The translations under genes and the position numbers were made by a program. Under the pieces are notes generated by a model. It was not told where the DNA came from. It was given only the letters and a program-made list of their open reading frames with translations, and searched no databases. Source: an uncultured Bacteroidales bacterium (lineage in GTDB: Bacteria > Bacteroidota > Bacteroidia > Bacteroidales > Bacteroidaceae). From it: a stretch of DNA of 64,000 nt. Shown piece after piece: positions 4,031-62,240 of this stretch (the stretch's first letter is position 1; each line of letters opens with the position of its first letter). The stretch spans positions 172 through 64,171 of the forward strand of contig CADAGX010000013.1 of assembly GCA_902787575.1 (NCBI GenBank), written 5' to 3'.

Positions 4031-4135
4031 AAAACTACACGTGCCTATCACGAAAACTACACGTCGCAAAGAGAAATGCCACACGTCGCTTGAGCACTTG
4101 CGACGTGTGGCATTTCTGATAACTACGTGTGACGT
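4031..4135. repeat. Array A of the 22-bp phased ACRYGT-core repeat family (5 units)
   Basis: ACGT cores sit at 4039, 4061, 4083, 4103 and 4125 (spacings 22, 22, 20, 22). The array lies between convergent genes. Confidence 0.8.
4074..4115. terminator. Bidirectional terminator-like hairpin formed by two inverted repeat units
   Basis: AAATGCCACACGTCGC (4074-4089), a 10-nt loop, then GCGACGTGTGGCATTT (4100-4115). The 16-bp stem is perfect, has A/T tracts at both ends, and lies between two convergent stops. Confidence 0.5.
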
Positions 4136-4137
4136 TC

Positions 4138-5700
4138 TTACTTGGCATACGCCACAGAACGAGTCTCGCGGATAACCGTGATTTTCACCTGGCCCGGGTA
4201 GGTCATCTCGTTCTGTATCTTTGTGGCAATCTCGGCGCTGAGTTGCTCCGTCTGCTTGTCGTCAATCTTATCCGCGCCCACAATGACACGCAGTTCGCGG
4301 CCGGCCTGGATGGCGTATGTCTTCACAACGCCCGGATAGCTCATGGCAATGTTCTCCAGATCCTTCAGACGCTTGATGTAAGCCTCCACAATTTCGCGAC
4401 GGGCACCGGGACGTGCACCGCTGATGGCATCGCAAACCTGTACGATGGGAGCCAATAGCGTTGTCATCTCCATTTCCTCGTGATGCGCACCGATGGCATT
4501 GCAGATGTCGGGCTTCTCCTTATACTTCTCGGCCAGTTTGGCACCATAAAGTGCGTGCGGCATCTCGGGTTCCTCGTCGGGCACCTTTCCGATGTCGTGC
4601 AACAGACCTGCGCGCTTTGCCTTCTTGGGATTCAGTCCGAGTTCGCTGGCCATAACTGCACACAGATTGGCCGTCTCGCGAGCATGCTGCAGAAGATTCT
4701 GGCCGTAGCTGCTGCGATACTTCATCTTGCCGATGATGCGAACGAGTTCGGGATGAAGGCCGTGCACGCCAAGGTCGATGGTCGTACGCTTTCCGGTCTC
4801 CAGAATCTCCTCATCTATCTGCTTTTTCACCTTTGCCACCACTTCCTCGATGCGCGCCGGATGAATGCGGCCGTCGGCCACCAACTGGTGCAACGCCAGG
4901 CGAGCTATCTCGCGACGCACGGGATCGAATGCGCTGATGACGATTGCCTCGGGTGTGTCGTCCACCACGATTTCCACGCCAGCAGCTGCCTCCAGCGCCC
5001 GAATGTTGCGTCCCTCGCGGCCAATGATGCGTCCCTTCACCTCATCGTTGTCTATGTGGAAAATGGTCACACTATTTTCCACAGCAGTCTCCGTAGCGAC
5101 GCGCTGTATCGTCTGAATGATGATTCGCTTGGCCTCTTTGTTGGCTGTCATCTTTGCGTCGTCCATTATCTCGTTGATGTAGGCAGCGGCGCTCGTTTTG
5201 GCTTCGTCTTTCAGCGACTCAACGAGGCGTTCCTTGGCTTCCTCGGCACTGAGACCGGATATCTCCTCCAGCTTTGTACGTTCCTGTTCCAAGAGATTGT
5301 TCTGTCGCACATTCAGGTCGTCCTCTTTCTTCTGCAGCAGAGCCTGCTGAGTTTCGAGCCTCTGCCACAGGCCATCCGACTCCTGGCGCTTGCGCGTCAG
5401 CTCGTCCTGCTTCTGATTGAGACTCATCTCGCGCTGCTTGATGCGGTTCTCAGCCTGCTGAATCTGCTGGTTGCGGACACGCAACTCCTTCTCCAACTCA
5501 GCTTTTTTGCTGAGGAACTTCTCTTTTACTTCCAGCAGTTTGCGTTCTTTAATTACTTCGGCTTCTTTCTCGGCAGCCTCACACGCCTCTTTCTTCAGCG
5601 CTTTGCGCTTGGCTGGGACGAAGGCCACGTACCAGATCACCACAAGCAATGCAAACGCAACAATGCCTATGATTAAGGCTACAACTATGCTTGATGTCAT
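4138..5700 (-). CDS. rny: Ribonuclease Y
   Basis: N-terminal TM helix, long coiled coil, KH domain ([15 protein letters not shown]) and HD domain (LLHDIGK). Confidence 0.95.
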
Positions 5701-5740
5701 GAAATATAAGTTTAAATTATTAATAAATTGGGGTCATAAC

Positions 5741-6052
5741 TCACTGTTCCTGCTTTTCGTTCAGTGCGGACTCCAACTCTTCGAGCAGCGGCGCAAGCCT
5801 GTTTACAATGGGCGTTGCGTCCATAGACGTTTCCTTCTGCTTTAGCATCACGGCCACGTCAAGTACCGTCATAACCAAGTACATTTCGGTACTCTGATTA
5901 CGATAGTTGTTCGTATAAAAGCTGTACCTCTCCTTTATCAGTTTCTCGGCCTGCCGATAGATTTCCTCGTCTTGGCGACGAACGGTCATCGGCAAGGTCC
6001 AACTCCCGAAACGGAGGGTTATTGATAATGTATCGTTTTGCTTCTGATCCAT
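5741..6052 (-). CDS. zapA: Cell division protein ZapA
   Basis: ~100-aa protein with a ZapA-like N-terminus (ITL....Y.L.V..DEE), placed directly upstream of rny as in other Bacteroidetes. Confidence 0.7.
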   Translation of the reverse strand: MDQKQNDTLSITLRFGSWTLPMTVRRQDEEIYRQAEKLIKERYSFYTNNYRNQSTEMYLVMTVLDVAVMLKQKETSMDATPIVNRLAPLLEELESALNEKQEQ

Positions 6053-6351
6053 TACTCTGTTGTTTTAAGCATCGCGATGCATCGGTCAATGTCTCGCACC
6101 ATTTTGGATATTCGGCCGCGCATCTGCTTCATGTCGTCGTCGGCCATATCCAGGTATTTTGCCATCTTCAGATGGGCGTAATTCTCCTGTAGTTTTTTAT
6201 TCTCACTCTCGAGGTTTTGGATTTTCTCCGCAGCCTCTTGCAAGCGCCGCTCCAACTGGATGCACTCCTCCTGCCGCTGCTTGTGCAACAACAAAAGCTG
6301 ACGGGTACGCGTTTCGAGCCGCGAGACCAAATCTGTCACTTGTGCGTCCAT
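6052..6351 (-). CDS. Coiled-coil protein (ZapB-like?)
   Basis: 99-aa heptad-rich sequence. It overlaps the zapA start by 1 nt. Confidence 0.5.
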   Translation of the reverse strand: MDAQVTDLVSRLETRTRQLLLLHKQRQEECIQLERRLQEAAEKIQNLESENKKLQENYAHLKMAKYLDMADDDMKQMRGRISKMVRDIDRCIAMLKTTE

Positions 6352-6380
6352 GAGATACCGCTATTTGCTTATTTTCTGTA

Positions 6381-6388
6381 CAAAGGTA
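6381..6388 (-). promoter_or_regulatory. -7 box (TACCTTTG on minus strand)
   Basis: Lies 29 nt upstream of ATG 6351 (coiled-coil/zapA/rny unit). Confidence 0.4.
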
Positions 6389-6412
6389 AGTTTTTTTCTG
6401 CGTTACGCAAAA

Positions 6413-7036
6413 TTATTCCTCACTATTTTTGCGAGGTTCCTTTTTGGCAAGCATCACAATCGTGTGCACGTACTCCGTCATCCACGCTTCGGAGTACCCC
6501 AGCATCGACTGGTATTTGCGAAGCGCCACGCAAGTACGGCGCACACCATCGTCGCTCCAGTCGTTTTTAGTCATCACTTCGTGCACCTGCTTGGCCACCA
6601 TTTCCTTCAGAGCGTTACTGAAGAAACGCGGGAGACGAAACTTCCACTGCATCAAGTTTCCCATCAGCATCAGCAAGTCCTGACTGAAACCTTGGAACGC
6701 GTAGAGATATCCCTGCACATCCTGAATTTTGCGACAGCGTTTCTTCACACTCTGGTCCACCTCGTCGAAGAAACCGTCGCTCACCTTGTAGATATCCTGA
6801 ATCAGGCGCTTGCAATACTTCTTCTCGCCGACGCCAAGTTTGTTGTTCACGGTCTGCACGTGATACGTTTGCTTGAAAATCCGCAGGTCGGGCAAGGCGG
6901 CAAGATTGCTGATGCCCATCTGCGATGCTATTGCAGACTGATAGTAAACGCGTATCAGCAGCATGAAATCCTCCATGCCACCCACTCGCGGTTCGCCGTC
7001 ATTCTTTCTTCCGAATAGTTTACTCCAAAAAGACAT
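6413..7036 (-). CDS. Hypothetical protein
   Basis: 207-aa ORF with coding-like composition. I recognise no family. Confidence 0.5.
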   Translation of the reverse strand: MSFWSKLFGRKNDGEPRVGGMEDFMLLIRVYYQSAIASQMGISNLAALPDLRIFKQTYHVQTVNNKLGVGEKKYCKRLIQDIYKVSDGFFDEVDQSVKKRCRKIQDVQGYLYAFQGFSQDLLMLMGNLMQWKFRLPRFFSNALKEMVAKQVHEVMTKNDWSDDGVRRTCVALRKYQSMLGYSEAWMTEYVHTIVMLAKKEPRKNSEE

Positions 7037-7057
7037 TCCTTTTATTCCTTATTTATA

Positions 7058-8014
7058 TTATACACTTTGAGATTTCTCACTTCTGCGCCCCAGAAACTGC
7101 GTGAGGGAGCGCCACATGATACGCAAGTCGAGCCAGCACGACCAGTTCTGAAGATACCAGAAATCGTCTAACACCTCAGTCTCCAGTTCGCTGCGGCGAC
7201 ATACGTCCTGACTATGGTCGCAGACTTGCGCCCAACCGGTAAGCCCAGGCTTTGCGATGCAGCGGATTCTATATCGCGTTGCCTCACGCAGATACGATTC
7301 CATCTCTTCTGGCTGCCGCGGGCGGGAACCGACAAACGACATTTCGCCAAAAAAGACGTTGAGGAACATGGGCAGTCGGTCCACCCACGTTTCACGCACA
7401 GCACCTTCCGGCCGTCGGAACGTCAAACGCCGAAACACACGTCCCTGCCGTCCGACGCATCGTGTCCGCAGAAAGATGGGACCGGGCGACTTGCGTTTAA
7501 TTCGGATGCCACACACAACGCAGAAGAACGGGAAAAGCGTCAGCAAAAAAACAGCGCTCAGAAGAAAATCTGCCACACGTTTTTCCACTCGACGCCACAC
7601 GTCGTACAGCACAGAACGACGTGTCGTTTGCGCAGAAACAAAGCCTCTACGAACAAGAGTCATTCGACGGCGCACGAAGGGCAAACCGACTGGGAGAGAA
7701 TAGAAGCGTATGCCATGCTCCTCGCACATATAGAAAAGCGACTCTGCCGCGCCCTGCTCCATACAACTCATGCAACAGAAAACCTCGTCCACGTCTGGAT
7801 GCTCCGCCAAGAATTGCTCTGCATCCTGCGCCGCTCCACGATACGAGATCTCCACGCGAACGTCGCCCTCGGCATCGTCAGAAAACAATGCGTCCACGAC
7901 GAAAAGTTTGCCGCCAAGCCTCCAGGCGTCGTACCACTCGTGAAAGAGCCTCAACGGGCCTACAAATATGACGTGTTTACTACGTTTCATTCCCTTTTTG
8001 ACATTGAACTCCAC
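7058..8014 (-). CDS. Polyprenyl-phosphate sugar phosphotransferase (Bac_transf; WbaP/EpsB-like without N-terminal TM bundle)
   Basis: C-terminal motifs KRVADFLLS, SPGPIFL, FVGSRP and KPGLTGWAQV. The N-terminal part resembles the Rossmann-like domain of large PGTs. Confidence 0.8.
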   Translation of the reverse strand: MEFNVKKGMKRSKHVIFVGPLRLFHEWYDAWRLGGKLFVVDALFSDDAEGDVRVEISYRGAAQDAEQFLAEHPDVDEVFCCMSCMEQGAAESLFYMCEEHGIRFYSLPVGLPFVRRRMTLVRRGFVSAQTTRRSVLYDVWRRVEKRVADFLLSAVFLLTLFPFFCVVCGIRIKRKSPGPIFLRTRCVGRQGRVFRRLTFRRPEGAVRETWVDRLPMFLNVFFGEMSFVGSRPRQPEEMESYLREATRYRIRCIAKPGLTGWAQVCDHSQDVCRRSELETEVLDDFWYLQNWSCWLDLRIMWRSLTQFLGRRSEKSQSV

Positions 8015-8048
8015 TCGCGCCGAACGCAGAATCGCCCAATAATCGCCA

Positions 8049-8056
8049 CAAAATTA
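8049..8056 (-). promoter_or_regulatory. -7 box (TAATTTTG on minus strand)
   Basis: Lies 34 nt upstream of ATG 8014. Confidence 0.35.
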
Positions 8057-8149
8057 CACATATTTTTTCAGATTCCCGCATTTTACGCGGAAATAAACGA
8101 AATTTGCATCATTTCTTTTTAAAACTTTCTTCACCTCATTTTTTTTCCT

Positions 8150-8157
8150 TACTTTTG
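8150..8157 (+). promoter_or_regulatory. -7 box (TACTTTTG)
   Basis: Lies 51 nt upstream of the wzc-like ATG at 8209. Confidence 0.4.
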
Positions 8158-8208
8158 CACACGAGAAAAGTTTCTTAAAGAAGTTTCACGTTTAACACCA
8201 TAAAACTG

Positions 8209-10644
8209 ATGTCAGACTACATCGAAAAGAATACCTCAGAAGAGGAAGAGAACGGCGGGATTAAACTCTCCGATATCTGGACCATTATTGTGCTCAACTG
8301 GCAATGGATTGCTCTTTCCGCGTTCATTGCGCTCTGCATGGCCTTTGTCTATCTCAGATACACGCGTCCTGTCTACGCGTCAGCCATGAAGATTCTCGTC
8401 AAGGACGACGACAACAAGAAATTCAACGCCGGGCAGATGGGACTTGAGAACATGGGAGTCATCTCCAATAGCAACGGATTTGACAACGAGCTCGAGATTC
8501 TGCGAAGCACTAGCCTCAGCACCAGAGTTGTCAAAAGCCTGAAACTTTATACGTCATACTATATCGAAGGACGGATTCGCAAGCATGAGGTTTACAACCA
8601 GTCGCCCATCATCGTGGACATGCCACAGGACGAACTCGACAAGTTGAACTGCTCCATCGCACTTAAAATTATCCCCAAAGAGAAAGGATATCAAGTGGAA
8701 GGCAAAGTGTACATTCCCCATGTGAAAGAGCCCGTAAAGTTCGAACGCGAGGTAAACGAACTGCCTACGACCCTGAATACTCCAGCAGGAAGCGTCACCA
8801 TGCAACTTGACCCCAGCTTCGACCTCGACGGCCGCAACCTGTATGCCTACATTGTACCGCCGGTAGCTGCCGGCCGCAATTGCGCAGCAAGGCTCTCGGC
8901 TAACGCTTCAAGCAAAATGACAACCGTAGCCGACATTTCTTTTGTGGATACGCAAATCGACCGCGCTCAAGATTTCCTCGAGGAACTGCTGAAAGGCTAC
9001 AACGAGGACGCGAACGAAGACAAGAATGAAGTGGCGCGCAAGACGGAGGAGTTCATCAAAGAACGTATTGACGTCATCCGCCACGAACTGGACAGCACGG
9101 AAATTAACTTGGCGCAGTACAAGAAAAGCAATAACCTGATTAACTTGACAAACGACGCAGCCAATGCGCTGACCACCACCACCGAGTATCACAAGAAACA
9201 AAGCGAGCTGCAGATACAGATGAACATCGTGGAGTCACTTATCAGGTATATGAATAACCCAGCCAATGCGCTCGATGTGATTCCCGCCAACTTGGGTTTG
9301 GACAATCAAAACCTCAATAAGTTGGTTAGCGACTATAACACCTTGGTTCAACAGCGCAAGCGCCTGCTAAAGAGCTCGGGCGAGAACAACTCCTACGTGC
9401 AGCGTATCACGGCTGAGATTGAGGAAATGTGGCCCTCCATTAAGTTGAGTCTCGATGCCATGAAAGAAGACTTAAACATCCAGAAGCGTGGAGTGGATCG
9501 CCAGTACTCACAGTTCAGCGGACGAATTGCAGCAACACCCGACCAAGAACGTACTTTGAACAACATCGGCCGACAGCAGGAAATCAAGTCGGGCCTCTAC
9601 CTGATGCTTCTCGAGAAACGCGAGGAGAACTACATTTCCTTGGCCAGCACGGCAGCAAAAGCCCGTATCATCGACGCGCCGCAGTACGTTGGCCGCGTGT
9701 CGCCCAAGAGCAAAATCATTTGGCTTTTAGCATTGATCCTTGGCTGCTGCTTCCCCGTCGGCGTAATTTACCTGCGCAACCTCTTGCGTGTGCACATCGA
9801 AGGCCGGGCTGACATTGAGAAACTGACCAAAGCCTCCATCCTTGCGGACATTCCTTTGGCAGCAAATGAAAACAGCGCGGATAACGGACTCGTGGTGCGT
9901 GAGAACAGCAACGACATGATGGAGGAGGCCTTCCGTGGCTTGCGCACAAACCTACGTTTCATTCTGGATTCAGGCGAACGCGTCATAACGTGCACCAGTA
10001 GCATTCCTGGCGAAGGCAAAACTTTCGTTTCCACCAATCTCGCCATGTCTTTGGCCTTAATGGGGAAACATGTGATTATTGTCGGCCTCGACATTCGCAA
10101 GCCGCGACTCGTACGCCTCTTCGGACTTCCGAGCAACAAAAAGGGACTCACCACATTCCTCACCAGCAACGACACCAGTTACGAGCTGCTCAAAGAGCAA
10201 ATAAACGTTGGTGTGGTGAACCAGAACTTGGATATTCTGCCAGCCGGCATCATCCCGCCTAACCCCAGCGAGTTGATTTCACGCGAGCAACTGGATATTG
10301 CCATCAAGCACCTGCGCGATCACTACGACTACGTTATCCTCGACACGCCTCCCGTAGGCCTTGTAAGCGACACGCTCTCCATTTCACGTACCGCAGACAT
10401 GACTATTTTCGTTTGCCGTGCAGACTATACTCCACGCTCGTGCTTCGAGCTGATAAACAGCCTGAGAGACGAGAAGAAACTGCCGAAAGTAAACTTAGTG
10501 CTTAATGGCATGGACATGAAGAAGAAGAAGTATGGCTACTATTACGGCTATGGTAAATATGGCCGCTACAGCAAGTACGGCAAGTACGGACTTTACGGCA
10601 AATACGGTCACGACTCGTCGTCGCACAGCCACACGGAGAAATAA
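8209..10644 (+). CDS. Polysaccharide co-polymerase / tyrosine autokinase (Wzc/GumC-like)
   Basis: Wzz-type N-terminus with 2 TM helices and a coiled coil. Has a Walker A (SSIPGEGKT), a DTPP Walker B-like motif and a Tyr-rich tail. Confidence 0.9.
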   Translation: MSDYIEKNTSEEEENGGIKLSDIWTIIVLNWQWIALSAFIALCMAFVYLRYTRPVYASAMKILVKDDDNKKFNAGQMGLENMGVISNSNGFDNELEILRSTSLSTRVVKSLKLYTSYYIEGRIRKHEVYNQSPIIVDMPQDELDKLNCSIALKIIPKEKGYQVEGKVYIPHVKEPVKFEREVNELPTTLNTPAGSVTMQLDPSFDLDGRNLYAYIVPPVAAGRNCAARLSANASSKMTTVADISFVDTQIDRAQDFLEELLKGYNEDANEDKNEVARKTEEFIKERIDVIRHELDSTEINLAQYKKSNNLINLTNDAANALTTTTEYHKKQSELQIQMNIVESLIRYMNNPANALDVIPANLGLDNQNLNKLVSDYNTLVQQRKRLLKSSGENNSYVQRITAEIEEMWPSIKLSLDAMKEDLNIQKRGVDRQYSQFSGRIAATPDQERTLNNIGRQQEIKSGLYLMLLEKREENYISLASTAAKARIIDAPQYVGRVSPKSKIIWLLALILGCCFPVGVIYLRNLLRVHIEGRADIEKLTKASILADIPLAANENSADNGLVVRENSNDMMEEAFRGLRTNLRFILDSGERVITCTSSIPGEGKTFVSTNLAMSLALMGKHVIIVGLDIRKPRLVRLFGLPSNKKGLTTFLTSNDTSYELLKEQINVGVVNQNLDILPAGIIPPNPSELISREQLDIAIKHLRDHYDYVILDTPPVGLVSDTLSISRTADMTIFVCRADYTPRSCFELINSLRDEKKLPKVNLVLNGMDMKKKKYGYYYGYGKYGRYSKYGKYGLYGKYGHDSSSHSHTEK

Positions 10645-10645
10645 A

Positions 10646-12160: not shown

Positions 12161-12165
12161 AGTAT

Positions 12166-12588: not shown

Positions 12589-12649
12589 CTCGAAGGGCGA
12601 AACTGCCTATTGCAAGAAAGAATTCCCTTTTTTCCACAATAAAAAGTAA

Positions 12650-12657: not shown

Positions 12658-12681
12658 CGTTATAATATAAACGCAAACATA

Positions 12682-14985: not shown

Positions 14986-15016
14986 GATTTCCATTACCAA
15001 GCGTCACGGCTTCTAT

Positions 15017-15097
15017 TCCCACACGTAGAAATAATTTTGCGACGTGTCGCAGAGACACATGCCACACGTCGCAAACACTCTTGCCACGTGTGGTATT
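15017..15097. repeat. Array B of the ACRYGT-core repeat family (4 units)
   Basis: Cores sit at 15023, 15042, 15066 and 15086, between the convergent ends of the two EPS operons. Confidence 0.7.
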
Positions 15098-15121
15098 TGA
15101 GGTATGGAACGGAGCCCCGTT

Positions 15122-26584: not shown

Positions 26585-26770
26585 CCTTTTTATTGCGGGC
26601 GCGAGGCCATTTTTTTAGCGCGCGAGGCGGAATGTAAATTTTTCGGATGTGAGATTACACACTGCCGAACATTGGATTTCTCATCGCGACCCATGCTTTT
26701 CGACTCGTCGGCGCACCATTTCATCGCCGACTAAGCAAACCTTATAAACAACTCGTTATCAACGAAATAA

Positions 26771-26905
26771 AAACCACGTTTCGCAGCCACGATTTCCACG
26801 CGCAGTTTTGGCTCACGCCACACGTGGTTTTGCTTCACGCGACACGTGGTTTTCGCTCACGCGACGCGTCGCATTTTACTCCGCCACACGTCGCATTTCC
26901 AGAAC
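26771..26905. repeat. Array C of the ACRYGT-core repeat family (6 units)
   Basis: Cores sit at 26776, 26798, 26822, 26844, 26864 and 26888. Four well-conserved 22-bp units end in ...TTTT(N)CTCAC. Confidence 0.8.
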
Positions 26906-27063: not shown

Positions 27064-27071
27064 TACCTTTG
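27064..27071 (+). promoter_or_regulatory. -7 box (TACCTTTG) for ssrA
   Basis: Lies 23 nt upstream of the tmRNA 5' GGGGCTG. Confidence 0.5.
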
Positions 27072-27094
27072 CAACTGCAAAACGGCAGACACAC

Positions 27095-27496
27095 GGGGCT
27101 GACATGGATTTGACAGCAGGAGAGGTGCCTGTGTAAGCACGCAGTGAGCCGGTAACCACTCACTCTAATCAAGGTTTCCAACGAAATTTATCTGGCGAAA
27201 ACAATTACGCTCTCGCTGCCTAACCGAAGCATAGTAGGTTCTTGGCTTTATTTCGGCACCAGGTGCTGAAACGAGATGTCACTCTGGAGCTCTGGCTCCG
27301 AAGCGTCCAGGCAAAGTGGCACAGCAACGTCGGAGATAGCCCGTCGCAGCCTCGCGCGAGCGGGTGAAAACTTAGAGGATAAGGCGAAGGTTGGTGGCCC
27401 AGGTCTTGCCTCCGCTCGAAAATGCAGGCTGGGATAAGCGTGTAGAAAGCATTGGTCGTCCCTGTTTGGACGAGGGTTCAATCCCCTCCAGCTCCA
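27095..27496 (+). ncRNA. ssrA: tmRNA (SsrA)
   Basis: The 5' GGGGCTGA pairs with the 3' ...CAGCTCCA. A T-arm-like GGACGAGGGTTCAATCCCCTCC is present. The tag ORF GGCGAAAACAATTACGCTCTCGCTGCCTAA (27194-27223) encodes GENNYALAA*. Confidence 0.92.
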
Positions 27497-27659
27497 CTTT
27501 CTTTGTGACGAGGGTACGCGAGGCAGGCGCACAGGCAAGTGACGCACTGCCGCGCCCGGCCCTGACTCTCGCACAGGCGGTAGCAGTGCCACGGGAGCAA
27601 AGAAAAAGAATCTGTCACCGACACGTTTCAGGACACACAAATCATAAGATAGACCCCAC

Positions 27660-36275: not shown

Positions 36276-36360
36276 ACAAAAGTTACGTGTAGTTTTTCGA
36301 GATGCGACGTGTAGTTTTCGATGATGCCACGCGTCGCATTTCAGCAGCCACGAGGCAACG
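36276..36360. repeat. Array D of the ACRYGT-core repeat family (3-4 units)
   Basis: Cores sit at 36285, 36307 and 36329 (ACGCGT), with a degenerate 4th. The array lies between convergent genes. Confidence 0.7.
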
Positions 36361-36446
36361 TTCTGCATACAAAGAGGAGGAGACACTGCCGCGGCAATGT
36401 CTCCTCCTTACTATGAGCGCTGATAAGTGCGCCTATGAGCCGACAA

Positions 36447-44375: not shown

Positions 44376-44462
44376 TCAAAAATGCGACGCGTCGTTCTGC
44401 TTGATGCGACGCGTCGCAAACGCTCAAGGCACGCGTCGCATCGGACACAGCGACGCGTGCCT
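44376..44462. repeat. Array E of the repeat family (4 ACGCGT cores exactly 22 bp apart)
   Basis: ACGCGT occurs at 44386, 44408, 44430 and 44452. Confidence 0.85.
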
Positions 44463-44468
44463 TTTTTA
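44425..44468 (+). terminator. Rho-independent terminator built from two inverted repeat units
   Basis: AAGGCACGCGTCGC, a 10-nt loop, then GCGACGCGTGCCTT, followed by TTTTAT. Confidence 0.65.
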
Positions 44469-46524: not shown

Positions 46525-46570
46525 AACTATGAACTATGGACTATGAACTATGAACTATGAACTATGAACT
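46525..46570. repeat. Heptanucleotide microsatellite (AACTATG)x6.5
   Basis: Units start at 46525, 46532, 46539 (GACTATG), 46546, 46553 and 46560, plus a partial unit. It lies between the eamA stop and the DUF3256 start. Confidence 0.95.
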
Positions 46571-49850: not shown

Positions 49851-49990
49851 TCTTGCGCGTGCCACGCGTCGCTTTTTCACAGCCACGCGTCGCATTCGCT
49901 CACGCCACACGTCGCAATCACTCACGTCACACGTCGCATTTTCACTTGTCACACGTCGCAAGAAAGACCGCCACATGTCGCATCACAGTT
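49851..49990. repeat. Array F of the repeat family (6 same-orientation units)
   Basis: CAC(G/A)(C/T)GTCGC cores start at 49863, 49884, 49906, 49928, 49950 and 49972 (spacings 21, 22, 22, 22, 22). Confidence 0.9.
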
Positions 49991-50182
49991 TTCCCACGAG
50001 TCAAATGTTAAAATGGCATGTAATTGCAGGCAAAACCTACACGATTCTGCCTTGCCTACACTCGAACCTACACTACCGAAACGCGCTGTTGCACAATCGG
50101 ATAAGTGCTCCGAGTGTAGGTTTGTAGGTTTTTTCAGAGAAAAAATCACTGGGTACAAGCCGCCCTTCGCCGCCAAGATGAG

Positions 50183-50226
50183 AAAAGGGCAAAAGAAAAC
50201 GAACGCCCCGAAGCTTTCTTCGGAGC
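50183..50226 (-). terminator. Rho-independent terminator of the rpsF-rpsR-rplI operon
   Basis: On the minus strand: GCTCCGAAG-AAAG-CTTCGGGGC followed by GTTCGTTTTCTTTTGCCCTTTT. Confidence 0.55.
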
Positions 50227-50260
50227 GCTCGCTTATAATAATATTGCTGTGTTGCGCTGT

Positions 50261-51082: not shown

Positions 51083-51418
51083 TTAGTCCTCCTTTTGATT
51101 GTTTCTTCTCTTTTCAGCGTAAGCTGCTGCGTATTTCTCCATCTTGACAGTGAGATAACGCAATACTCTCTCATCACGGCGATAGGCAGTCTCTAACACC
51201 TTGACGTTCTCCGGTGCTGTTTTGAACTCTATCAGCACATAGAATCCCGTGCTCTTCTTCTCAATGGGATAAGCCAGTTTCTTCAAGCCCCAGTTCTCCT
51301 CATTGATGATTTCAGCACCCATCTCGGTGAGAACGCCTTTGAACTTGTTTACCGCTTCCTTCATCTGATCGTCAGACAAAACGGGAGTTAAAATGAAAAC
51401 GGTTTCGTATTGATTCAT
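51083..51418 (-). CDS. rpsF: 30S ribosomal protein S6
   Basis: [12 protein letters not shown]...NWG.KKLAY.I. The start is at the internal ATG 51418. The longer ORF upstream is antisense to the esterase gene. Confidence 0.95.
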
Positions 51419-51465
51419 AATACGTTTAATTAATAAAATGGTTAATTGTTGTGCAAAATGCGGTG

Positions 51466-51473
51466 CAAAGGTA
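51466..51473 (-). promoter_or_regulatory. -7 box (TACCTTTG on minus strand)
   Basis: Lies 47 nt upstream of the rpsF ATG. Confidence 0.45.
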
Positions 51474-51546
51474 AGATATTTTTGCGAACTGGCCAAACGT
51501 TTTAATATATTTTGTGTTATCGTGAGTGCGACTCGTCTTTTTTCCT

Positions 51547-51554
51547 TATCTTTG
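51547..51554 (+). promoter_or_regulatory. -7 box (TATCTTTG)
   Basis: Lies 29 nt upstream of ATG 51584. Confidence 0.4.
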
Positions 51555-51583
51555 TACACAAAGTAAAAGAACGAAACGACGGA

Positions 51584-52399
51584 ATGCGATTCACCAAGTA
51601 TATATACCTTATTATATACGCATACGCGTGCGCGTGTCTGCCGCTCGGAGCACAAAACGATGTGCTCGCGGCCCAAAAAGGTGTCATAAAAGGCGGCTAC
51701 GACTTCTGGGTCTATACGCCTGCCGACTACGAGACGACACAGGACAGCACGCCCGTCATTTTGTTTCTGCACGGCGCGAGCCTCTGCGGCCGCGATTTGA
51801 GTCGCGTCCGCCGCTACGGACCACTGCACGCGCTGCAGATGGGACGCAACATTCCGGCACTCATCATCGCTCCGCAGAATCCGGGCGGCGCGTGGAATCC
51901 AAAGAAAATAAACGACGTGCTCGACTGGACGCTGTCGCACTACGCAGCCGACACGACACGCATATACGTCATTGGCATGAGCCTGGGCGGATACGGTACG
52001 ATGGACTACGCTGGTACGTACCCACACCGCGTGGCTGCGGCTATGGCCTTGTGCGGAGGATGTACGCTGCGCGATGTGCAGGGATTGGGCGAGTTGCCAC
52101 TCTGGATTCTGCACGGAACGGCTGACCGTGCCGTGGGAATCCGACATTCGCAGACCGTAGTGGAAGCACTTCGCCGCGAGAAGAACGACCAACGACTGAG
52201 GTTCGACTGGCTCAACGGGCAGTCGCACGGCGCGCTGGGACGGTTGTTCTACATGGAGAAGACGTACGACTGGCTTTTTGCACACACTGTGGCAGACTCC
52301 GGACGCGTGGCCGACCGGCTGATTACCATCACGAATGCAGATCTGAAGCAAGCTTACCGCAACATCACACGCAGAAAGGAGCCAATGCACGTGAAATAA
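51584..52399 (+). CDS. Secreted alpha/beta-hydrolase (carboxylesterase/peptidase S9-like)
   Basis: Signal peptide, GMSLGG nucleophile elbow, and LHGTADRAV (Asp/His region). Confidence 0.7.
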
Positions 52400-52445
52400 C
52401 CCAGAACTCTCAGGAACGATAAGACAATTAACACATCGAATCACT

Positions 52446-53939: not shown

Positions 53940-53967
53940 CATTTACTAACCTATAACACGAAGAAAG

Positions 53968-54690: not shown

Positions 54691-54729
54691 GGCGGGCCAG
54701 TCCGAGAGACAGCTAATATAATAAGGTAT

Positions 54730-55503
54730 ATGGAGAAGAAGTTCACCGGAAAAGTGTTCCTGATTGCAGGCAGCGAGCCACTGGGCAGCGCTGGCGTGCA
54801 AGCCGACATCAAGGCCATTACGAAGTTGGGCGGCTGGGCCGCGGCAGCATTGACGTGCATCGTGGATGAAGACACCTCGCACATCAAGAGCATCACGCCG
54901 CTGTCGCCCTCGCTCATTGCCTCGCAAGCCGAATCGTTTTTGGGAAGCGTGGGTGCCGACTGCATCAAGACGGGCGTGTTGCCCAGCGTGGAAATCATAG
55001 AAGCCGTGGCCGAAGTGCTGGCTCATCACAAGGGCGTGCCTACGCTGGTGGACCCCGTGGTGGTAAACTTTGCAGGCGAGCAGTTGGTCAGCGACGCTGC
55101 CATCGACGCGTACAAGCAGTTGCTTTTCCCGCTCTCGACACTCATTACGCCCAACCGTCGCGAGGCCGAAGTGCTGCTCGGACACGCCATCAGCGATGTG
55201 GAGAGCGACCTGCGCGAATTGTCGCGATGGGGCTGCTCGGTACTTATCAAGTCGGTGGAGCAGGGAAAGTACCTCGTGGATTATCTCTATGAGGTGGCAA
55301 CCGACACGGTGACGCCCTTCCCAAAGAAGCGCCTCGTGCTGACCGACCGAAACGGCACGGGCGACACGCTGGCCTCGGCTATCGCCACGCACCTGGCGCT
55401 TGGCTGCGACCTGCAGACGGCACTGTCGCGAGCCGAGGCTTACATGCACTTCTTCCTCGCCAACCCGCGCTACGTAATCAGTGTCGGCGAGCATGGGAAA
55501 TAA
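54730..55503 (+). CDS. thiD: Hydroxymethylpyrimidine/phosphomethylpyrimidine kinase-like (ribokinase superfamily)
   Basis: AGSEPLGSAGVQADIK, VDPV and GTGDTLASAI motifs. Confidence 0.7.
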   Translation: MEKKFTGKVFLIAGSEPLGSAGVQADIKAITKLGGWAAAALTCIVDEDTSHIKSITPLSPSLIASQAESFLGSVGADCIKTGVLPSVEIIEAVAEVLAHHKGVPTLVDPVVVNFAGEQLVSDAAIDAYKQLLFPLSTLITPNRREAEVLLGHAISDVESDLRELSRWGCSVLIKSVEQGKYLVDYLYEVATDTVTPFPKKRLVLTDRNGTGDTLASAIATHLALGCDLQTALSRAEAYMHFFLANPRYVISVGEHGK

Positions 55504-55567
55504 CTACACGTAGTTTTACGGAAAGCCACGTGTAGTTTCAGCCGAAGCGACGCGTCGCATTTTTCAA
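55501..55567. repeat. Array G of the repeat family (3 units)
   Basis: Cores sit at 55508, 55528 and 55550 (ACGCGT). The array fills the gap between the thiD stop and the ptp ATG. Confidence 0.7.
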
Positions 55568-55572
55568 AACGC

Positions 55573-56608: not shown

Positions 56609-56620
56609 AAGTACCACACC

Positions 56621-57307: not shown

Positions 57308-57347
57308 TTTTTTCTTCGTACCTTTGCAGCCGAGAAAACAAACGCCA

Positions 57348-59210
57348 ATGATTGTATGCATCGCCGAAAAACCGTCCGTAGCACGTGACATCGCCCACGT
57401 CTTGGGCGCAGACCGCAGCATGGAAGGCTACATGGAAGGCAATGGCTACCAAGTAACCTGGACTTTCGGCCACCTGTGCGAGCTAAAGGAGCCGCACGAC
57501 TACACGCCTATCTGGAAGCAATGGAGCTTGGGACAGCTGCCAATGATTCCACCACGCTTCGGAATTAAGCTGAAAGCGGACAAAGGCATCGAAAAACAAT
57601 TCGGCATCATCGAAAAGCTGATGAGTCAGGCCGACGAGATCATTAACTGCGGCGATGCCGGACAAGAGGGAGAACTGATTCAGCGTTGGGTAATGCAGAA
57701 AGCACAGGTTACTTGCCCCGTCAAGCGGCTTTGGATTAGCAGCCTTACGGAAGACGCCATTCGCGAAGGCTTCCAGACGCTCAAAGACCAAAGCGAATAC
57801 CAAAGCCTCTACGAAGCAGGGCTGATGCGCGCCATCGGAGACTGGCTGTTGGGAATGAACGCGACACGCCTTTACACGCAGAAATATGCCTACGGCCGCC
57901 GCCAGGTGCTCAGCATCGGGCGAGTGCAAACGCCCACGCTGGCACTCATCGTACGCCGCCAGCAGGAAATCGAGAACTTCGCGCCCGTGCCGTACTGGGT
58001 GCTGACAACACAGTATCGGCAAGTCACGTTTTCGGCAATCATGGAAGAAGGCGACCGCGGCTTCAAGTCGCGCGAAGAAGGCGAGCGGGCGTTGGAAAGC
58101 ATACGGCAGCAGCCTTTCACTGTCACCGACGTTCAAAAGAAAAAAGGCACCGAGGCACCGCCCCGACTCTTCGACCTGACAAGTCTGCAAGTGGAGTGCA
58201 ACAAACGTTACGGCTTCAGCGCCGAAACCACTTTGCAGCTGATACAAAGTCTCTACGAAAAGAAGTTAACCACTTATCCACGCGTCGATACCACGTTTCT
58301 CTCGGAGGATATTTATCCCAAGTGCCCGCAGATAATGAACGGACTGCGTGCATATTTCCCACTAATGGAACGCATCAAAGGGAAGCCACTGCCTAAGACA
58401 AAGAAGGTATTCGACAACAAAAAAGTCACGGATCACCACGCAATCATCCCAACGGGCCAAGAAGCCAAGAATATGACAGAGATGGAAGCGAAGGTTTACG
58501 ATATGGTAGCCCGACGTTTCATAGGCGTTTTCCATCCCGACTGCGTGTTTAATACCACAACCGTGCTGGGGCAAGTGGCAGAAATAGGCTTCAAAGCCAC
58601 CAGCAAGGAGATTGTAGATCCGGGCTGGAAGGTTGTAGAACAAGCGCCTACGCCCGACACTTCAGGCAGCGACAGCCCGGAGAATACAGACGACACGCCG
58701 CAGATTTCCAGCAAAGACGTCACTTTCACCAAGGGTGAGAGTGGGCCGCACACACCCGACCTTGCCGAAAAACAAACCACGCCACCAAAACCATACACCG
58801 AAGCTACGTTGCTGCGCGCAATGGAGACGGCAGGAAAGACAGTGGACGACGACGAGTTGCGCGACGCGCTGAAGGAGAACGGAATCGGGCGTCCAAGCAC
58901 CCGTGCCGCCATTATCGAGACACTTTTCCGCCGCCACTACATCGCAAAGAAAGGCAAATCGCTCTACGCCACACCTACGGGAGTAGAACTTATCGGCCTC
59001 ATCCGTGAGGAATTGCTTATGAGCGCCGAACTTACCGGCCGCTGGGAGAAGAAGTTGCGACAGATAGAACGGCACGAATACGAGGCTCGCACCTTTCTGG
59101 AGGAACTCAAGCAGATGGTCACGGACATCGTGCTGACCGTGCTGCGTGACAACACACCTCGACAGATTACCGTCACCGCCGAGAATCCGAAACGCGGCAA
59201 AAGACAATAA
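57348..59210 (+). CDS. topB: DNA topoisomerase III (type IA)
   Basis: Toprim start M.V.IAEKPS.A..IA, WTFGHL, DAGQEGELI, and active-site region LTTYPRVDT. Confidence 0.9.
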   Translation: MIVCIAEKPSVARDIAHVLGADRSMEGYMEGNGYQVTWTFGHLCELKEPHDYTPIWKQWSLGQLPMIPPRFGIKLKADKGIEKQFGIIEKLMSQADEIINCGDAGQEGELIQRWVMQKAQVTCPVKRLWISSLTEDAIREGFQTLKDQSEYQSLYEAGLMRAIGDWLLGMNATRLYTQKYAYGRRQVLSIGRVQTPTLALIVRRQQEIENFAPVPYWVLTTQYRQVTFSAIMEEGDRGFKSREEGERALESIRQQPFTVTDVQKKKGTEAPPRLFDLTSLQVECNKRYGFSAETTLQLIQSLYEKKLTTYPRVDTTFLSEDIYPKCPQIMNGLRAYFPLMERIKGKPLPKTKKVFDNKKVTDHHAIIPTGQEAKNMTEMEAKVYDMVARRFIGVFHPDCVFNTTTVLGQVAEIGFKATSKEIVDPGWKVVEQAPTPDTSGSDSPENTDDTPQISSKDVTFTKGESGPHTPDLAEKQTTPPKPYTEATLLRAMETAGKTVDDDELRDALKENGIGRPSTRAAIIETLFRRHYIAKKGKSLYATPTGVELIGLIREELLMSAELTGRWEKKLRQIERHEYEARTFLEELKQMVTDIVLTVLRDNTPRQITVTAENPKRGKRQ

Positions 59211-59240
59211 AAAGCGACGTAAGCCGTTATTATTAATGTA

Positions 59241-61355
59241 ATGGCACGCTCAAAGCACATCATATCACTGCATACATTGCGTACATTGCATTCCTACCAC
59301 ACACTGGCAGGAATGCTTTTTGCGCTCGTTTTCTGCGCATGCGGCGCCGAGAAGAATATGAAGAAGGGCGACGCCTTCTACGCCATCGGCGAGTATTTCG
59401 ACGCGGCGGCCGAATACAAGAAAGCTTACTCGCGCACGCCCACCAAAGACAAGGAGAAGCGTGCCGAAAGAGCATGGAAGATGGCCGAATGCTACCGCCC
59501 GATAAACTACAGTGCCAAGGCCGCCGGTGCATACCAGAACGCTATCCGCTACAAATACCACGACTCGCTGGCAATTTTCTACCTTGCACAAATGCAACAG
59601 CGACAGGGCGATTATAAAAATGCCACGAAGAACTACGATGCATTCTTACAGCTCGCACCCAAACATACGTTGGCACAGAACGGCAAAAAGGGCTGCGAGT
59701 TAGCTCCGCAGTGGAAGGCAAAGCCAACACTTTACACGGTCAAGAAAGAACCAATCCTCAACAGCCGCCGCTCAGACTTCTCGCCAGTTCTTTACGGCGA
59801 CGAGTGGGACCAACTTTATATCACCAGCACACGTCCGCAATCTTCGGGCAACGAAGTGAGCGGCATCACGGGAACCAAGAATGGCGACATCTTTGTTTCC
59901 AAGAAAGACGACAAAGGAAAATGGGGACAGCCCGAGAGTATCGAATCGGAACTCAACACAGACTACGACGAGGGGGCCTGTGCGTTCAGTCCCGACGGCA
60001 AGACGATGTATTTCACACGCTGCACGTTCGATGCCGACTATCCGCGCTTTGCAGAAATATTCTCATCCTCACGTTCCGACGCTTCGTGGGGCAGCGGCCA
60101 AGCTGTAACGCTTACGAAAGACACGCTATCCAGCTACGCACATCCCGCAGTTTCGCCCGACGGACGTTGGCTTTACTTCGTCAGTGACATGCCAGGCGGA
60201 CTTGGCGGCACTGATATCTGGCGTATCGCACTCAGCGAACACGGCTTGGGCGGTGTGGAGAATCTGGGCGAGCCTATCAACAGCGAAGGCAACGAGATGT
60301 TTCCAACTTTCCGACCCAACGGCGACCTCTATTTCTCGTCCGACGGCCACGCGGGCATGGGCGGATTAGATCTCTTCTGCGCTCAGTCTGATTCAGCGGG
60401 CCACTGGAGCATCGAAAACTTGCGTTATCCCATGAATTCCAGCGGCGACGACTTCGGTATGACCTTCGAGGGCCTGCATAATCGCGGCTTCTTCTGCACC
60501 AATCGCGGCGACGCCCGAGGCTGGGACCATATCATGTCCTTCGAATGTCCCGAGATTCTGCTCACTGTCAAAGGTTGGCTTTACGAAAAGGACGGCTACG
60601 AACTGCCAGAAGGACTGGTCTATATGGTGGGAAACGACGGCACTTACCTCAAACTCAGCATGCGAAGCGACGGTTCTTTCACGCAGGAAATAAAACCTAA
60701 TGTGGACTACGTATTCCTTGGCACGTGCAAGGGTTACCTCAACCACAAGGAAGAACTTCGGATCGACACGAGTTCTGTCAGCCGCGAATACGTACTACAG
60801 TTTCCTCTCGCCAGCATAAATAATCCCGTTCTCATACGAAATGTTTTTTATGAGTTCGACAGCGCTGCACTTACGGAGTCCAGTACGCAAGCTTTGGACA
60901 GCCTGGTAGATTTGTTAAATGAGAACCCAAACGTCACTATCGAACTTGCCAGCCATTGTGACTACCGCGGTCGCGACGAATACAATATGCGGCTGAGCCA
61001 GCGCCGCGCCGAGAGTGTGGTGAACTACCTTATCGAGCACGGAATTGACTCGGTGCGGCTCACGCCCATCGGGTACGGAGAAAGCCGCCCAAAGATTGTG
61101 ACGCGCAAGATTGCCGAGCAACAACCATTCTTACACGAAGGAGACACACTCACCGAAGCCTTCATCCTCGCCATCGAAGACGAGGAGAAGCAGGAGGTGT
61201 GCAATGCCCTGAACCGCCGCACTGAGTTTAAGGTCCTCCGCACGACGTACGGACTCTTCGACGTGCCTCAGAAGAAGGACGAGAAGGCGGCGAAGAAAGA
61301 AGAAGAGGGAAGCACAGAAGACACCGCACCCGAAGAATCCACCGACGGAATTTGA
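59241..61355 (+). CDS. OmpA-family protein with TPR, beta-propeller (TolB-like) and OmpA_C domains
   Basis: N-terminal TPR-like segment, repeated FSPDG/VSPDG propeller motifs, and C-terminal NR..L.F...SA.L...........L.......I.L..H.D..G...YN..LS..RA..V. An alternative start at 59313 gives the lipobox FCACG. Confidence 0.8.
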   Translation: MARSKHIISLHTLRTLHSYHTLAGMLFALVFCACGAEKNMKKGDAFYAIGEYFDAAAEYKKAYSRTPTKDKEKRAERAWKMAECYRPINYSAKAAGAYQNAIRYKYHDSLAIFYLAQMQQRQGDYKNATKNYDAFLQLAPKHTLAQNGKKGCELAPQWKAKPTLYTVKKEPILNSRRSDFSPVLYGDEWDQLYITSTRPQSSGNEVSGITGTKNGDIFVSKKDDKGKWGQPESIESELNTDYDEGACAFSPDGKTMYFTRCTFDADYPRFAEIFSSSRSDASWGSGQAVTLTKDTLSSYAHPAVSPDGRWLYFVSDMPGGLGGTDIWRIALSEHGLGGVENLGEPINSEGNEMFPTFRPNGDLYFSSDGHAGMGGLDLFCAQSDSAGHWSIENLRYPMNSSGDDFGMTFEGLHNRGFFCTNRGDARGWDHIMSFECPEILLTVKGWLYEKDGYELPEGLVYMVGNDGTYLKLSMRSDGSFTQEIKPNVDYVFLGTCKGYLNHKEELRIDTSSVSREYVLQFPLASINNPVLIRNVFYEFDSAALTESSTQALDSLVDLLNENPNVTIELASHCDYRGRDEYNMRLSQRRAESVVNYLIEHGIDSVRLTPIGYGESRPKIVTRKIAEQQPFLHEGDTLTEAFILAIEDEEKQEVCNALNRRTEFKVLRTTYGLFDVPQKKDEKAAKKEEEGSTEDTAPEESTDGI

Positions 61356-61410
61356 TATACGAATTCCGTCGCGCTACAATCAAAAAGACGCTCGACTCTT
61401 CAGCCTTTTT

Positions 61411-62163
61411 TCATACGATATCACGTTCAGCGAGCGAGGTAAATTTCTGACGGAAGTGACGCAACGCTGGAATGTCGATGTCAGCAGTCAGCGACGATGC
61501 CACTCCATCGGGGCATTCCTTCGCCTCCCCATACGGATTCACGAAAGCACTGCCGCCAAAGTATTCGCAGGCCGGGTCTTCCCCCACACGGTTTACGCCC
61601 AAGACATAGCACTGATTTTCGATGGCACGGGCACGAAGTAGTATGCGCCATGCGTCGGCACGTGCCGTGGGCCACGACGCCACACAAATCAACGCGTCGT
61701 AATCCTCGTGACAGCGCAACCAAAGAGGGAAGCGCAAGTCGTAACAGACAGATAAGAGAAAGCGTACGCCACGCCACTCGGCCACCACGCGCTTGTCGCC
61801 GGCCAGGAACTGACGGTCTTCGCCGCTATAGGAGAAAAGGTGATGCTTGTCGTAGAAGAACGTTGCGTCGGGCGTGACAAAATAGAGGCGATTGCGATAG
61901 TTGTCGCCTTCGCACACTGCCATGCTGCCCGCCACAGCTGCATCCAGTCGGCGTGCCATCTGTTGCATCCAACGCAGGGTTTCTCCGTCGGGCGCCTCGG
62001 CTATTTCCTGCGGCTTCAATGCGAAACCAGTGTTCCACATCTCAGGCAGCACATAGAGGTCGCTTCCGGCCGATGCAAGCATCTGTTGCTCGGCACGCTG
62101 GCGGTTGGACGCCACATCGCACCACGCGATATCCATCTGAACAAGTGTTACCTTCATCTTCAT
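61411..62163 (-). CDS. Carbon-nitrogen hydrolase family amidohydrolase (omega-amidase YafV-like)
   Basis: LPEMWNTGF (catalytic Glu) and SVCYDLRFP (catalytic Cys). The start is chosen at ATG 62163. Confidence 0.8.
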   Translation of the reverse strand: MKMKVTLVQMDIAWCDVASNRQRAEQQMLASAGSDLYVLPEMWNTGFALKPQEIAEAPDGETLRWMQQMARRLDAAVAGSMAVCEGDNYRNRLYFVTPDATFFYDKHHLFSYSGEDRQFLAGDKRVVAEWRGVRFLLSVCYDLRFPLWLRCHEDYDALICVASWPTARADAWRILLRARAIENQCYVLGVNRVGEDPACEYFGGSAFVNPYGEAKECPDGVASSLTADIDIPALRHFRQKFTSLAERDIV

Positions 62164-62170
62164 TGCGTGG

Positions 62171-62178
62171 CAAAGGTA
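62171..62178 (-). promoter_or_regulatory. -7 box (TACCTTTG on minus strand)
   Basis: Lies only 7 nt upstream of ATG 62163, implying a near-leaderless mRNA. Confidence 0.35.
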
Positions 62179-62202
62179 CAAAGATTATTTCAGAATCTGA
62201 AG

Positions 62203-62240
62203 AAACGACACGTGCTTTTCTGTTTCCCACACGCTGCAGG
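62203..62240. repeat. Array H of the repeat family (2 degenerate units)
   Basis: AACGACACGTGCTTTTC and TTTCCCACACGCTGC, with cores ~21 bp apart. Confidence 0.5.

Follow-up and report, generated by a model that had tools for sequence, protein, structure and literature searches.

Among dispersed bacterial palindromes, the bacterial interspersed mosaic elements (BIMEs) have been reported to be bound by the host proteins gyrase, IHF and Pol I, and the palindromic arrays of phage operators and plasmid centromeres are bound side by side by dimers. The subject of this study is a family of palindromic units with an ACRYGT core, repeated with a period of 22 bp in dispersed, mostly intergenic arrays, in a stretch of 64,000 nucleotides from an uncultured rumen Bacteroidales bacterium (contig CADAGX010000013.1, positions 172 to 64,171), referred to below as the window. 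Three described families of dispersed repeats are closest to it. The repetitive extragenic palindromic (REP) unit is an imperfect palindrome in the form of a stem-loop, with stems of 5-13 bp and loops of 2-20 nt (Table 1, PMC3733652), and the REP super-families of Enterobacteria and Pseudomonas are tagged by GTAG or CGTC (PMC3733652). BrickBuilt of Porphyromonas gingivalis is a 23-nt repeat with the consensus AGAYCATARTATCCTCTCRTRTG that is not palindromic; it is framed by a leader and a tail of up to 285 and 318 nt with small terminal inverted repeats and is present in 19 copies per genome (PMC4596501). The PINSR repeat of Prevotella intermedia and P. nigrescens measures 188 bp, with 184 copies in strain 17 (PMC4755523). 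The core and the spacing of the window family appear to be kept by selection, and this points to an undescribed DNA-binding system, not to junk or a catalogued repeat.

An Rfam scan of the window returned only the tmRNA above the gathering threshold, and a permissive scan of the region of array F gave only a chance sub-threshold match on the rplI terminator. When the literature was searched by sequence, the 12-mers of the unit were found only as primers or control oligonucleotides. A link to gyrase through GCGACGCGTCGC, which occurs in a paper on gyrase cleavage, was rejected, as the sequence serves there as a CD control oligonucleotide. The family is thus undescribed in Rfam and in the searchable literature, and the statement of the preliminary description, made from the DNA sequence, that no described element could be assigned to it still holds.

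All counts, shuffles and gene assignments refer to the 64-kb window; dinucleotide-preserving shuffles were applied as the chance model, and the gene map was built from codon-usage scoring and Pfam. The hexamer ACRYGT occurs 104 times, compared with 69.6 ± 8.2 times in the shuffles, and 25 pairs of neighbouring cores lie 20-24 bp apart where the shuffles have 0.40 ± 0.65 (maximum 3). The spacing is 22 bp in 22 of these pairs, 21 bp in two and 23 bp in one, the last being an unrelated pair inside a gene. A triple of SACRYGTS at 22-bp steps matched eight times in the window and never in 100 shuffles, and Tandem Repeats Finder, which is independent of the core counts, reported period-22 arrays at A, B, C, D and F. 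The phased intergenic family of about 22 bp that had been proposed is therefore real. Non-coding DNA has 6.4 cores per kb and coding DNA 1.18, a 5.4-fold difference (Fisher P = 7e-13) that bears out the intergenic preference noted earlier. Arrays amount to 12% of the non-coding DNA; of the 16 gaps that measure 130 bp or more, 7 contain one. Eight arrays with 32 units in total were found, namely the intergenic arrays A-G with 3-6 units each and a further array, N, that had been overlooked. The preliminary description had listed at least eight array regions, A-H; A-G stand, but H (62200..62240), located between the divergent CN-hydrolase (-) and hsp20 (+) genes, is a remnant and not an array, because it holds only one good unit (core at 62208, 14.5 bits with the position weight matrix, PWM) and one degenerate unit. 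Arrays E and G are assigned to the plus strand; A, B, C, D, F, N and H carry no strand assignment.

The 32 array units were aligned on their cores and gave a symmetric profile of about 17 bits with the general form AAATGCGAC-RY-GTCGCATTT and GC as the consensus centre. The site extends over about 16-18 bp, (A/T)(A/T)TGC(G/C/T)AC-RY-GT(C/G/A)GCA(A/T)(A/T). AC and GT are invariant in the 32 units and the centre is always purine-pyrimidine, with ACACGT in 14 cores, ACGCGT in nine, ACGTGT in eight and ACATGT in one; the base preceding AC is G, C or T. The earlier claim of a 12-bp dyad in every unit thus applies in part: AC-RY-GT is invariant and the flanks show the symmetric preference (A/T)(A/T)TGC(G/C/T)AC, but the strict dyad GCSACRYGTSGC is present in only 13 of the 32 cores. 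The half-sites GCGAC, GCCAC, ACTAC, GTCAC and GGCAC combine freely, and most units carry two different variants. Since the half-sites of one unit vary independently, the unit is not maintained as a hairpin. Identity between the 8-bp spacers is 0.47 within arrays and 0.41 between arrays, compared with 0.35 for random sequence, yet the spacer length is 8 bp (a 22-bp step) in 22 of 24 cases within the window arrays, the other steps being 21 bp. The flanks of the arrays have only A/T runs in common, with neither leader nor tail.

The same register was found outside the window. A genome collection that does not include the species of the window was scanned with a pattern of two ACRYGTCGCA units 22 bp apart, which returned 57 loci, 36 in Bacteroidota and 21 across unrelated phyla (chance estimate 17). 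Nearly all of the 36 Bacteroidota loci belong to metagenome-assembled genomes (MAGs) of rumen or gut Bacteroidales, to which Hallella multisaccharivorax DSM 17128 is added. The Bacteroidales matches are true 22-bp arrays that have the core in common but differ by lineage in their spacers and half-sites (a reindeer MAG, for instance, has TGCGACGCGTCCCT), and 46 of 53 spacings are exactly 22 bp after removal of the seeded pair. Because the spacers are near-random and yet of fixed length in the window as well as in these lineages, it is their length that is constrained and not their sequence. Ten of the arrays in other genomes lie between co-directional genes, seven between convergent and four between divergent genes.

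The constraint on the cores was assessed in strains and in relatives. Ten rumen metagenome contigs with the exact RNase Y protein of the window (studies STEW18/19 and XIEF21) all retain arrays A and N, with point changes as the only differences, several of which are CpG to TpG or CpA at the core centre or the degenerate position; polymorphisms within the cores are confined to degenerate positions. At a larger distance, array G was found at the orthologous place in a contig (L178) whose ThiD is 93-94% identical. Fourfold degenerate sites of glpK, glpF and thiD differ there at a rate of 0.35 (173/498), whereas the three 10-bp cores of array G show three changes in their 30 positions (binomial P = 0.002). 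All three changes are allowed by the family (CTAC to CGAC, ACACGT to ACGCGT and GTCG to GTAG). In the spacers, about half of the positions are changed, and each of the two spacings measures 21 bp, not 22. The fold of the array has a z score of -2.75 in the window compared with 0.2 and 0.0 in the relative; the cores thus persist although the RNA structure is lost. The comparison is suggestive of cores that evolve more slowly than neutral sites, as judged from a single array of three units.

The core polymorphisms in the window, the ten strain contigs (L001-L010) and L178 are mostly CpG to TpG or CpA transitions, located either at the central RY step or within ACGT. They are of a kind that cytosine methylation could promote, but are also simply the commonest type of change.

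Beyond the relative at 94%, the comparisons of GlpK, ThiD, RNase Y and endonuclease I loci gave either lost synteny or absent arrays. No array was present in 1.02 Mb around the GlpK genes of Bacteroidota at 59-77% identity, at the loci around ThiD homologues at 75-81%, or upstream of endonuclease I in relatives at 64-69%; two contigs at the array F locus (L182 and L183) have a gap of 70-100 bp with the promoter only. Syntenic rny loci, with RNase Y 90-91% identical, contain one weak two-core chain in 43 kb, and the relatives L180 and L181 have ordinary hairpin terminators at the position of array A. Orthologous conservation, which had been proposed as a test of the family, thus applies to array G in L178 but not to the other syntenic loci examined, bar the weak chain at rny. 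As the arrays are absent in these relatives and patchy in the collection, the family has been massively amplified in the lineage of the window and is patchy elsewhere. The thiD locus of a further contig (L184, ThiD 83% identical) is without array G and the phosphatase gene of the window, and a cobalamin riboswitch (Rfam RF00174, 80.8 bits) is located there at 974-1145 before the gene downstream of thiD.

Array N (7567..7632; cores at 7575, 7597 and 7619) is located within a coding sequence. Its host gene, the open reading frame (ORF) at 7058-8014 on the minus strand, encodes an intact, full-length Bac_transf-like sugar transferase. The array corresponds to the protein stretch ...TTRRSVLYDVWRRVEKRVAD..., which covers the conserved KRxxD motif; the three cores code for TTRR, YDVW and KRVA, and the last of these overlaps the invariant KRxxD. 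The gene aligns without gaps to orthologues in two related contigs, where similar residues are encoded without cores, and therefore no insertion-like change in length has occurred at array N. The array is present in all 10 strain contigs, and its formation by chance is unlikely, with an estimate of fewer than 1e-3 triples expected at this spacing. The codon usage of the gene is atypical, with a low score for its length.

Our leading explanation, which we put forward tentatively, is that the arrays are phased sites for a putative dimeric DNA-binding protein, that they have a REP/BIME-like lifestyle and that inverted neighbours have been co-opted as terminators at gene 3' ends. A dimeric sequence-specific protein would bind each two-fold-symmetric unit, and the step of 22 bp (sometimes 21), equal to two helical turns, would place neighbouring dimers on one face of the helix, where they might contact each other and bind cooperatively. 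The protein would then be the agent that constrains core and spacing. The family, extragenic, abundant and amplified in one lineage, would gain and lose whole 22-bp units. At gene 3' ends, neighbouring units would have become exact inverted copies whose hairpins, with T-runs, double as (possibly bidirectional) terminators and replace the ordinary ones that relatives have there. The preliminary description had already suggested rows of sites for a dimeric protein, and we favour the dimer reading because it best accounts for a symmetric site of about 17 bits with independent half-sites, for a register maintained over free spacers across genera, for cores that outlast the fold, and for the occupation of untranscribed gaps and of a coding region. 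The family shows the layout of a phased dimer operator: a symmetric site in the range of 14-20 bp, repeated at integral turns, with constrained sequence and spacing and with free spacers.

The folding of the arrays leads to the question whether they act instead as RNA or single-stranded DNA. Every array folds better than its shuffles (z -2.2 to -6.1), because neighbouring units pair. Perfect complementarity over at least 12 bp is found in 5 of 22 neighbour pairs where 1.4 are expected, and all five pairs belong to the 3'-end arrays A, B and E, with none in the direct arrays C and F. Array A (4029..4138; cores at 4037, 4059, 4081, 4103 and 4125) fills the 142-bp interval that separates rny (-) from a convergent ORF (+) of 139 aa. 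Its units 3 and 4, which repeat each other exactly in inverted orientation, pair in a hairpin of 17-18 bp at 4073-4116 (array z -6.1/-5.4), and on the rny (minus) strand an 18-bp stem followed by TTTCTCTTT has the shape of an intrinsic terminator. Array B (15013..15100; cores at 15021, 15042, 15064 and 15086), between convergent glycosyltransferase (+) and GH26 (-) genes, is a nested hairpin in which unit 1 pairs with unit 4 and unit 2 with unit 3 (z -5.1/-4.8). Array E (44379..44466; cores at 44387, 44409, 44431 and 44453) lies between the stop codon of a 698-aa gene, which it follows directly, and the rpmE promoter; its units 3 and 4 pair as a 14-bp stem with T6 after it, again the shape of an intrinsic terminator (z -6.0). 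Array D (36277..36364; cores at 36285, 36307 and 36329 and a degenerate fourth unit) directly follows the stop codon of a 111-aa ORF (+); the convergent gene on the other side, fba (-), has a hairpin terminator of its own, separate from the array. The G+C-rich hairpin with T-run of an intrinsic terminator is thus present in E and in A (minus strand) and absent in C, F, G and the G orthologue. Inverted neighbours with T-runs at 3' ends most likely double as terminators, judging from these predicted folds.

These observations would also suit a mobile palindrome of REP/BIME type that acts at the level of RNA or single-stranded DNA, is moved by a transposase supplied in trans and terminates transcription or protects mRNA 3' ends. 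We consider this possible, if on balance improbable. It would account for the general excess of folding, for the enrichment of perfect inverted neighbours at 3' ends with a hairpin and T6 in E, for the location of array A where relatives have their terminator, and for an amplification that is lineage-specific and patchy over the Bacteroidales. Arrays C and F do not fit it, being direct, poorly pairing and outside transcription units. Array C (26768..26899; four good cores at 26820, 26842, 26864 and 26886, with two degenerate units 5' of them at 26776 and 26798) lies between a Bac_transf gene (-) and the divergent tmRNA gene (+); the -7 box of the tmRNA promoter, TACCTTTG (27065), follows 170-290 bp downstream. 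Array F (49856..50013) consists of six direct units with cores at 49864-49973, a degenerate seventh unit and the terminal 12-mer CAAATGTTAAAA at 50002-50013; on the minus strand it follows the rplI terminator and precedes the endonuclease I promoter, 120-250 bp before its -7 box TACCTTTG (49745-49738). As C is upstream of divergent promoters and F between a terminator and a promoter, both are outside any obvious transcription unit. Array G (55498..55563; cores at 55506, 55528 and 55550) fills the 69-bp gap between the co-directional genes for thiD and a low-molecular-weight phosphotyrosine phosphatase and ends 10 nt 5' of the ATG. The preliminary description had placed C, F, G and H upstream of genes in direct orientation. 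The direct orientation of C and F was recovered, but F is located between a terminator and a promoter, and G fills a co-directional gap. A role of the arrays as promoter parts was rejected, since the tmRNA and endonuclease I promoters are well away from them.

Further features are at odds with a mobile hairpin. Array G of L178 has kept its cores and lost its fold, the half-sites do not co-vary, and a hairpin has no need of a strict 22-bp register. The gene-internal array N shows no insertion-like change in length. Elsewhere, the orientation of the arrays, taken as the strand with G-U pairing and read by eye, is inconsistent with respect to the direction of the flanking gene. A Y1 or other transposase, or any recurrent gene, was not found within 2.5 kb of 38 arrays in 33 loci, and the window itself contains no gene for a RAYT (IS200/IS605-type Y1 transposase) or another transposase and no unexplained DNA-binding gene. 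A sulfatase and a DAHP synthase/aminotransferase were rejected as recurrent neighbours, because they represent orthologous loci of related MAGs or inconsistent positions.

Sequence has nevertheless moved between arrays, a point in favour of a mobile element. The unit sub-family CGAAAACTACACGT is common to A and D and weaker in G, and the sub-family CTCACGCCACACGT is common to C and F. Over three units taken in order, the identity of arrays D and G is 67%, compared with 43 ± 8% for all in-register comparisons. In the distant MAG RGIG6721, all six arrays examined (L040, L051, L062, L069, L070 and L075) open with a 12-13-nt leader CAAATGTTAAAAA, and the 12-mer at the end of array F, unique in the window, is identical to this leader, which hints at a shared composite element. 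From the shared sub-families, the likeness of D and G and the common leader it follows that sequence has been copied between loci by some route. Two related MAGs differ at the same array by a clean 22-bp indel (four units in L045, five in L058), and arrays of identical units are present in three MAG contigs (L040, L082 and L072).

Such whole-unit changes and identical units would also be expected of a neutral or selfish minisatellite, a 22-bp tandem seeded at many gaps and spread by slippage and ectopic gene conversion, with homogenisation posing as conservation. Sister species without arrays, and the tolerance of any intergenic context, are in line with this explanation as well. We regard it as unlikely. 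Slippage and conversion would homogenise the spacers too, whereas these are near-random while the cores and the 8-bp length are kept. Moreover, the core changes in L178 lead only to allowed variants, and the same core and period recur across genera with unrelated spacers.

The preferred reading of phased sites for a dimeric protein has several points against it. The conservation test involves a single orthologous array of three units, and close relatives manage without arrays, so any function would be dispensable or lineage-specific. A candidate binding protein was not found in the window by the Pfam and codon-usage gene map. Eight arrays in 64 kb would amount to hundreds per genome if the density is genome-wide, which is beyond an ordinary regulon and typical of selfish repeats. 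The excess of hairpin potential is equally expected of an element that acts as RNA or single-stranded DNA, and the copying of sequence between loci is not required by a pure binding-site model.

A variant of the dimer reading, which we regard as unlikely, is that the arrays are anchor or loading sites of a nucleoid-organising system, in which a dimeric protein polymerises on rows of 3-6 sites every 5-12 kb or so and delimits domains of topology or transcription. The rows would have originated in place, or would first have spread and then have been retained by selection, even in coding sequence. If true, this would be a chromosome-architecture element confined to some uncultured rumen Bacteroidales.

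Clusters of a methyltransferase or restriction-modification target that serve as epigenetic marks or as sites for a reader of methylated DNA are very improbable. AflIII cuts ACRYGT and MluI cuts ACGCGT, and the preliminary description had pointed to ACRYGT as a restriction or methylation target. The invariant part of the unit is indeed exactly ACRYGT, and the central CpG to TpG or CpA polymorphisms are of the kind that cytosine methylation favours. Outside the arrays, in contrast, the hexamer is neither avoided nor enriched (about 69 copies, about 70 expected), and the proposal finds no support. Nor would it explain the symmetric flanks, the 22-bp register and the intergenic bias; the window contains no gene for such a methyltransferase or endonuclease, and transitions are the commonest changes in any case. 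Operators of an ordinary transcription factor that controls the downstream genes as a regulon are hardly credible. In favour are the palindromic, phased sites, the location of C, F, G and H upstream of genes and, in other MAGs, arrays that precede a Bacteroidetes -7 box by 60-130 bp (L045 and L058), but three of the eight window arrays are between convergent genes, the flanking genes (rny, fba, tmRNA, rpmE, capsule genes, thiD) have no common function, about half of the large gaps are occupied and no orthologous gene is recurrently flanked across genomes.

Viral contigs were searched for related patterns. Three phage contigs (L199 at 5084-5150, L203 at 5440-5560 and L204 at 500-600) carry 3-5 palindromic sites of the CGAC-RY-GTCG type at 22-26-bp steps, which look like operator arrays of repressors; such sites at steps of 22-23 bp count in favour of the dimer reading. 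A generic four-core pattern gave only unrelated perfect tandem repeats of 22 or 11 bp. The family-specific pattern gave, besides the three phage arrays, 14 copies of one conserved stretch, probably coding, in small contigs of 4-6 kb, in which the pair of cores is due to chance. The pattern searches in viral contigs provided no evidence for a viral origin of the family.

The midpoints of arrays A-G are at 4081, 15053, 26840, 36307, 44420, 49918 and 55528. The distances between these seven intergenic arrays are 5.5-11.8 kb with a coefficient of variation of 0.31, an evenness equalled in only 0.3-1% of random draws of seven intergenic gaps in a post hoc comparison on a single window. The genes of the window are of housekeeping and capsule types. 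Capsule or exopolysaccharide genes are found on both sides of rny (window 1-26600) and include Wza-like, Wzz/tyrosine-kinase-like and Wzi genes, several glycosyltransferases, two Bac_transf genes and a MATE-like flippase; L180 and L181, although syntenic, have a different set. The tmRNA gene (27095-27499) encodes the tag peptide GENNYALAA, and its Bacteroidetes-type -7 box TACCTTTG is at 27065-27072. Near array F, rpsF-rpsR-rplI are arranged as the expected operon, whose terminator, at about 50190-50232, is canonical. A 453-aa ORF at 51083-52444 (minus) is spurious, rpsF being only its C-terminal part, and an alpha/beta-hydrolase gene is located on the opposite strand upstream of rpsF (51512-52399). 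A 7-bp AACTATG tandem at 46525-46570 (6.6 copies, 94% identity), which has no relation to the 22-bp family, bridges the short interval between the DUF3256 and EamA transporter genes and extends into the 3' end of the EamA gene.

The Prevotella-like Bacteroidales of the rumen, which are mostly uncultured, rank with the most abundant bacteria of the gut. To our knowledge, their non-coding DNA has hardly been described. If a protein does read the arrays, they would provide a new and testable model of dispersed repeats that are used by, or impose on, a bacterial chromosome, with possible roles in termination, insulation or domain structure. On the practical side, the arrays give rise to spurious Arg/His/Thr-rich ORFs, constitute a clean sequence marker of the lineage and may disrupt short-read assemblies.

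Among the known systems, REP units and BIMEs share most with the family. Both are short extragenic palindromes of high copy number in regular arrays, often with inverted neighbours that form long hairpins; both are frequent at gene 3' ends, vary in consensus by lineage and have intragenic copies. The unit in the window differs in that it is 22 bp long with a loop-free dyad (GCGAC/GTCGC around RY), so that a single unit has no stem-loop. The unpaired terminal GTAG or CGTC tag is missing, and CGTC and GTAG occur instead symmetrically within the dyad, in both arms (ACGTCGC, ACGTAGT). BIMEs alternate strictly and have conserved linkers, whereas C and F are direct and the spacers near-random. The strict 22-bp register and the position of some arrays outside transcription units are further differences. 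What remains of the earlier REP/BIME comparison is therefore the lifestyle (abundant, extragenic and lineage-amplified, with hairpins at 3' ends) and not membership, for which the tag, the stem-loop of the unit and the linkers are lacking, as is a RAYT in the window or within 2.5 kb of the 38 arrays elsewhere. CRISPR was rejected because repeats of 23-47 bp with spacers of similar length are required, compared with the 22-bp period, 8-bp spacers and mixed orientation seen here, and no cas genes are present in the window.

BrickBuilt, which is strictly intergenic, is likewise a dispersed tandem repeat specific to Bacteroidales, with a nearly equal period, a unit number that varies by strain, occurrence in every gene-orientation context and spurious ORF calls. 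The window family has instead a period of 22, an unrelated palindromic consensus, no leader or tail, and eight arrays in 64 kb. PINSR is similarly lineage-restricted and highly amplified, without terminal inverted repeats or a known transposase (PMC4755523), but its single 188-bp unit is no row of phased short palindromes. Neither is accepted as a relative; both are analogues only. The operators of phage repressors and the centromeres of type Ib/II plasmids (ParR/iteron-like) have palindromic 14-18-bp sites about two helical turns apart from centre to centre, as in the window. These systems have one or few arrays per replicon with the gene for the binding protein adjoining, whereas the window arrays are dispersed every 5-12 kb along the chromosome and have no cognate gene nearby in the window. 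By analogy, the family would be nearest to REP/BIME in its lifestyle and, within the Bacteroidales, to BrickBuilt, while its mechanism would resemble that of cooperative operator and centromere arrays.

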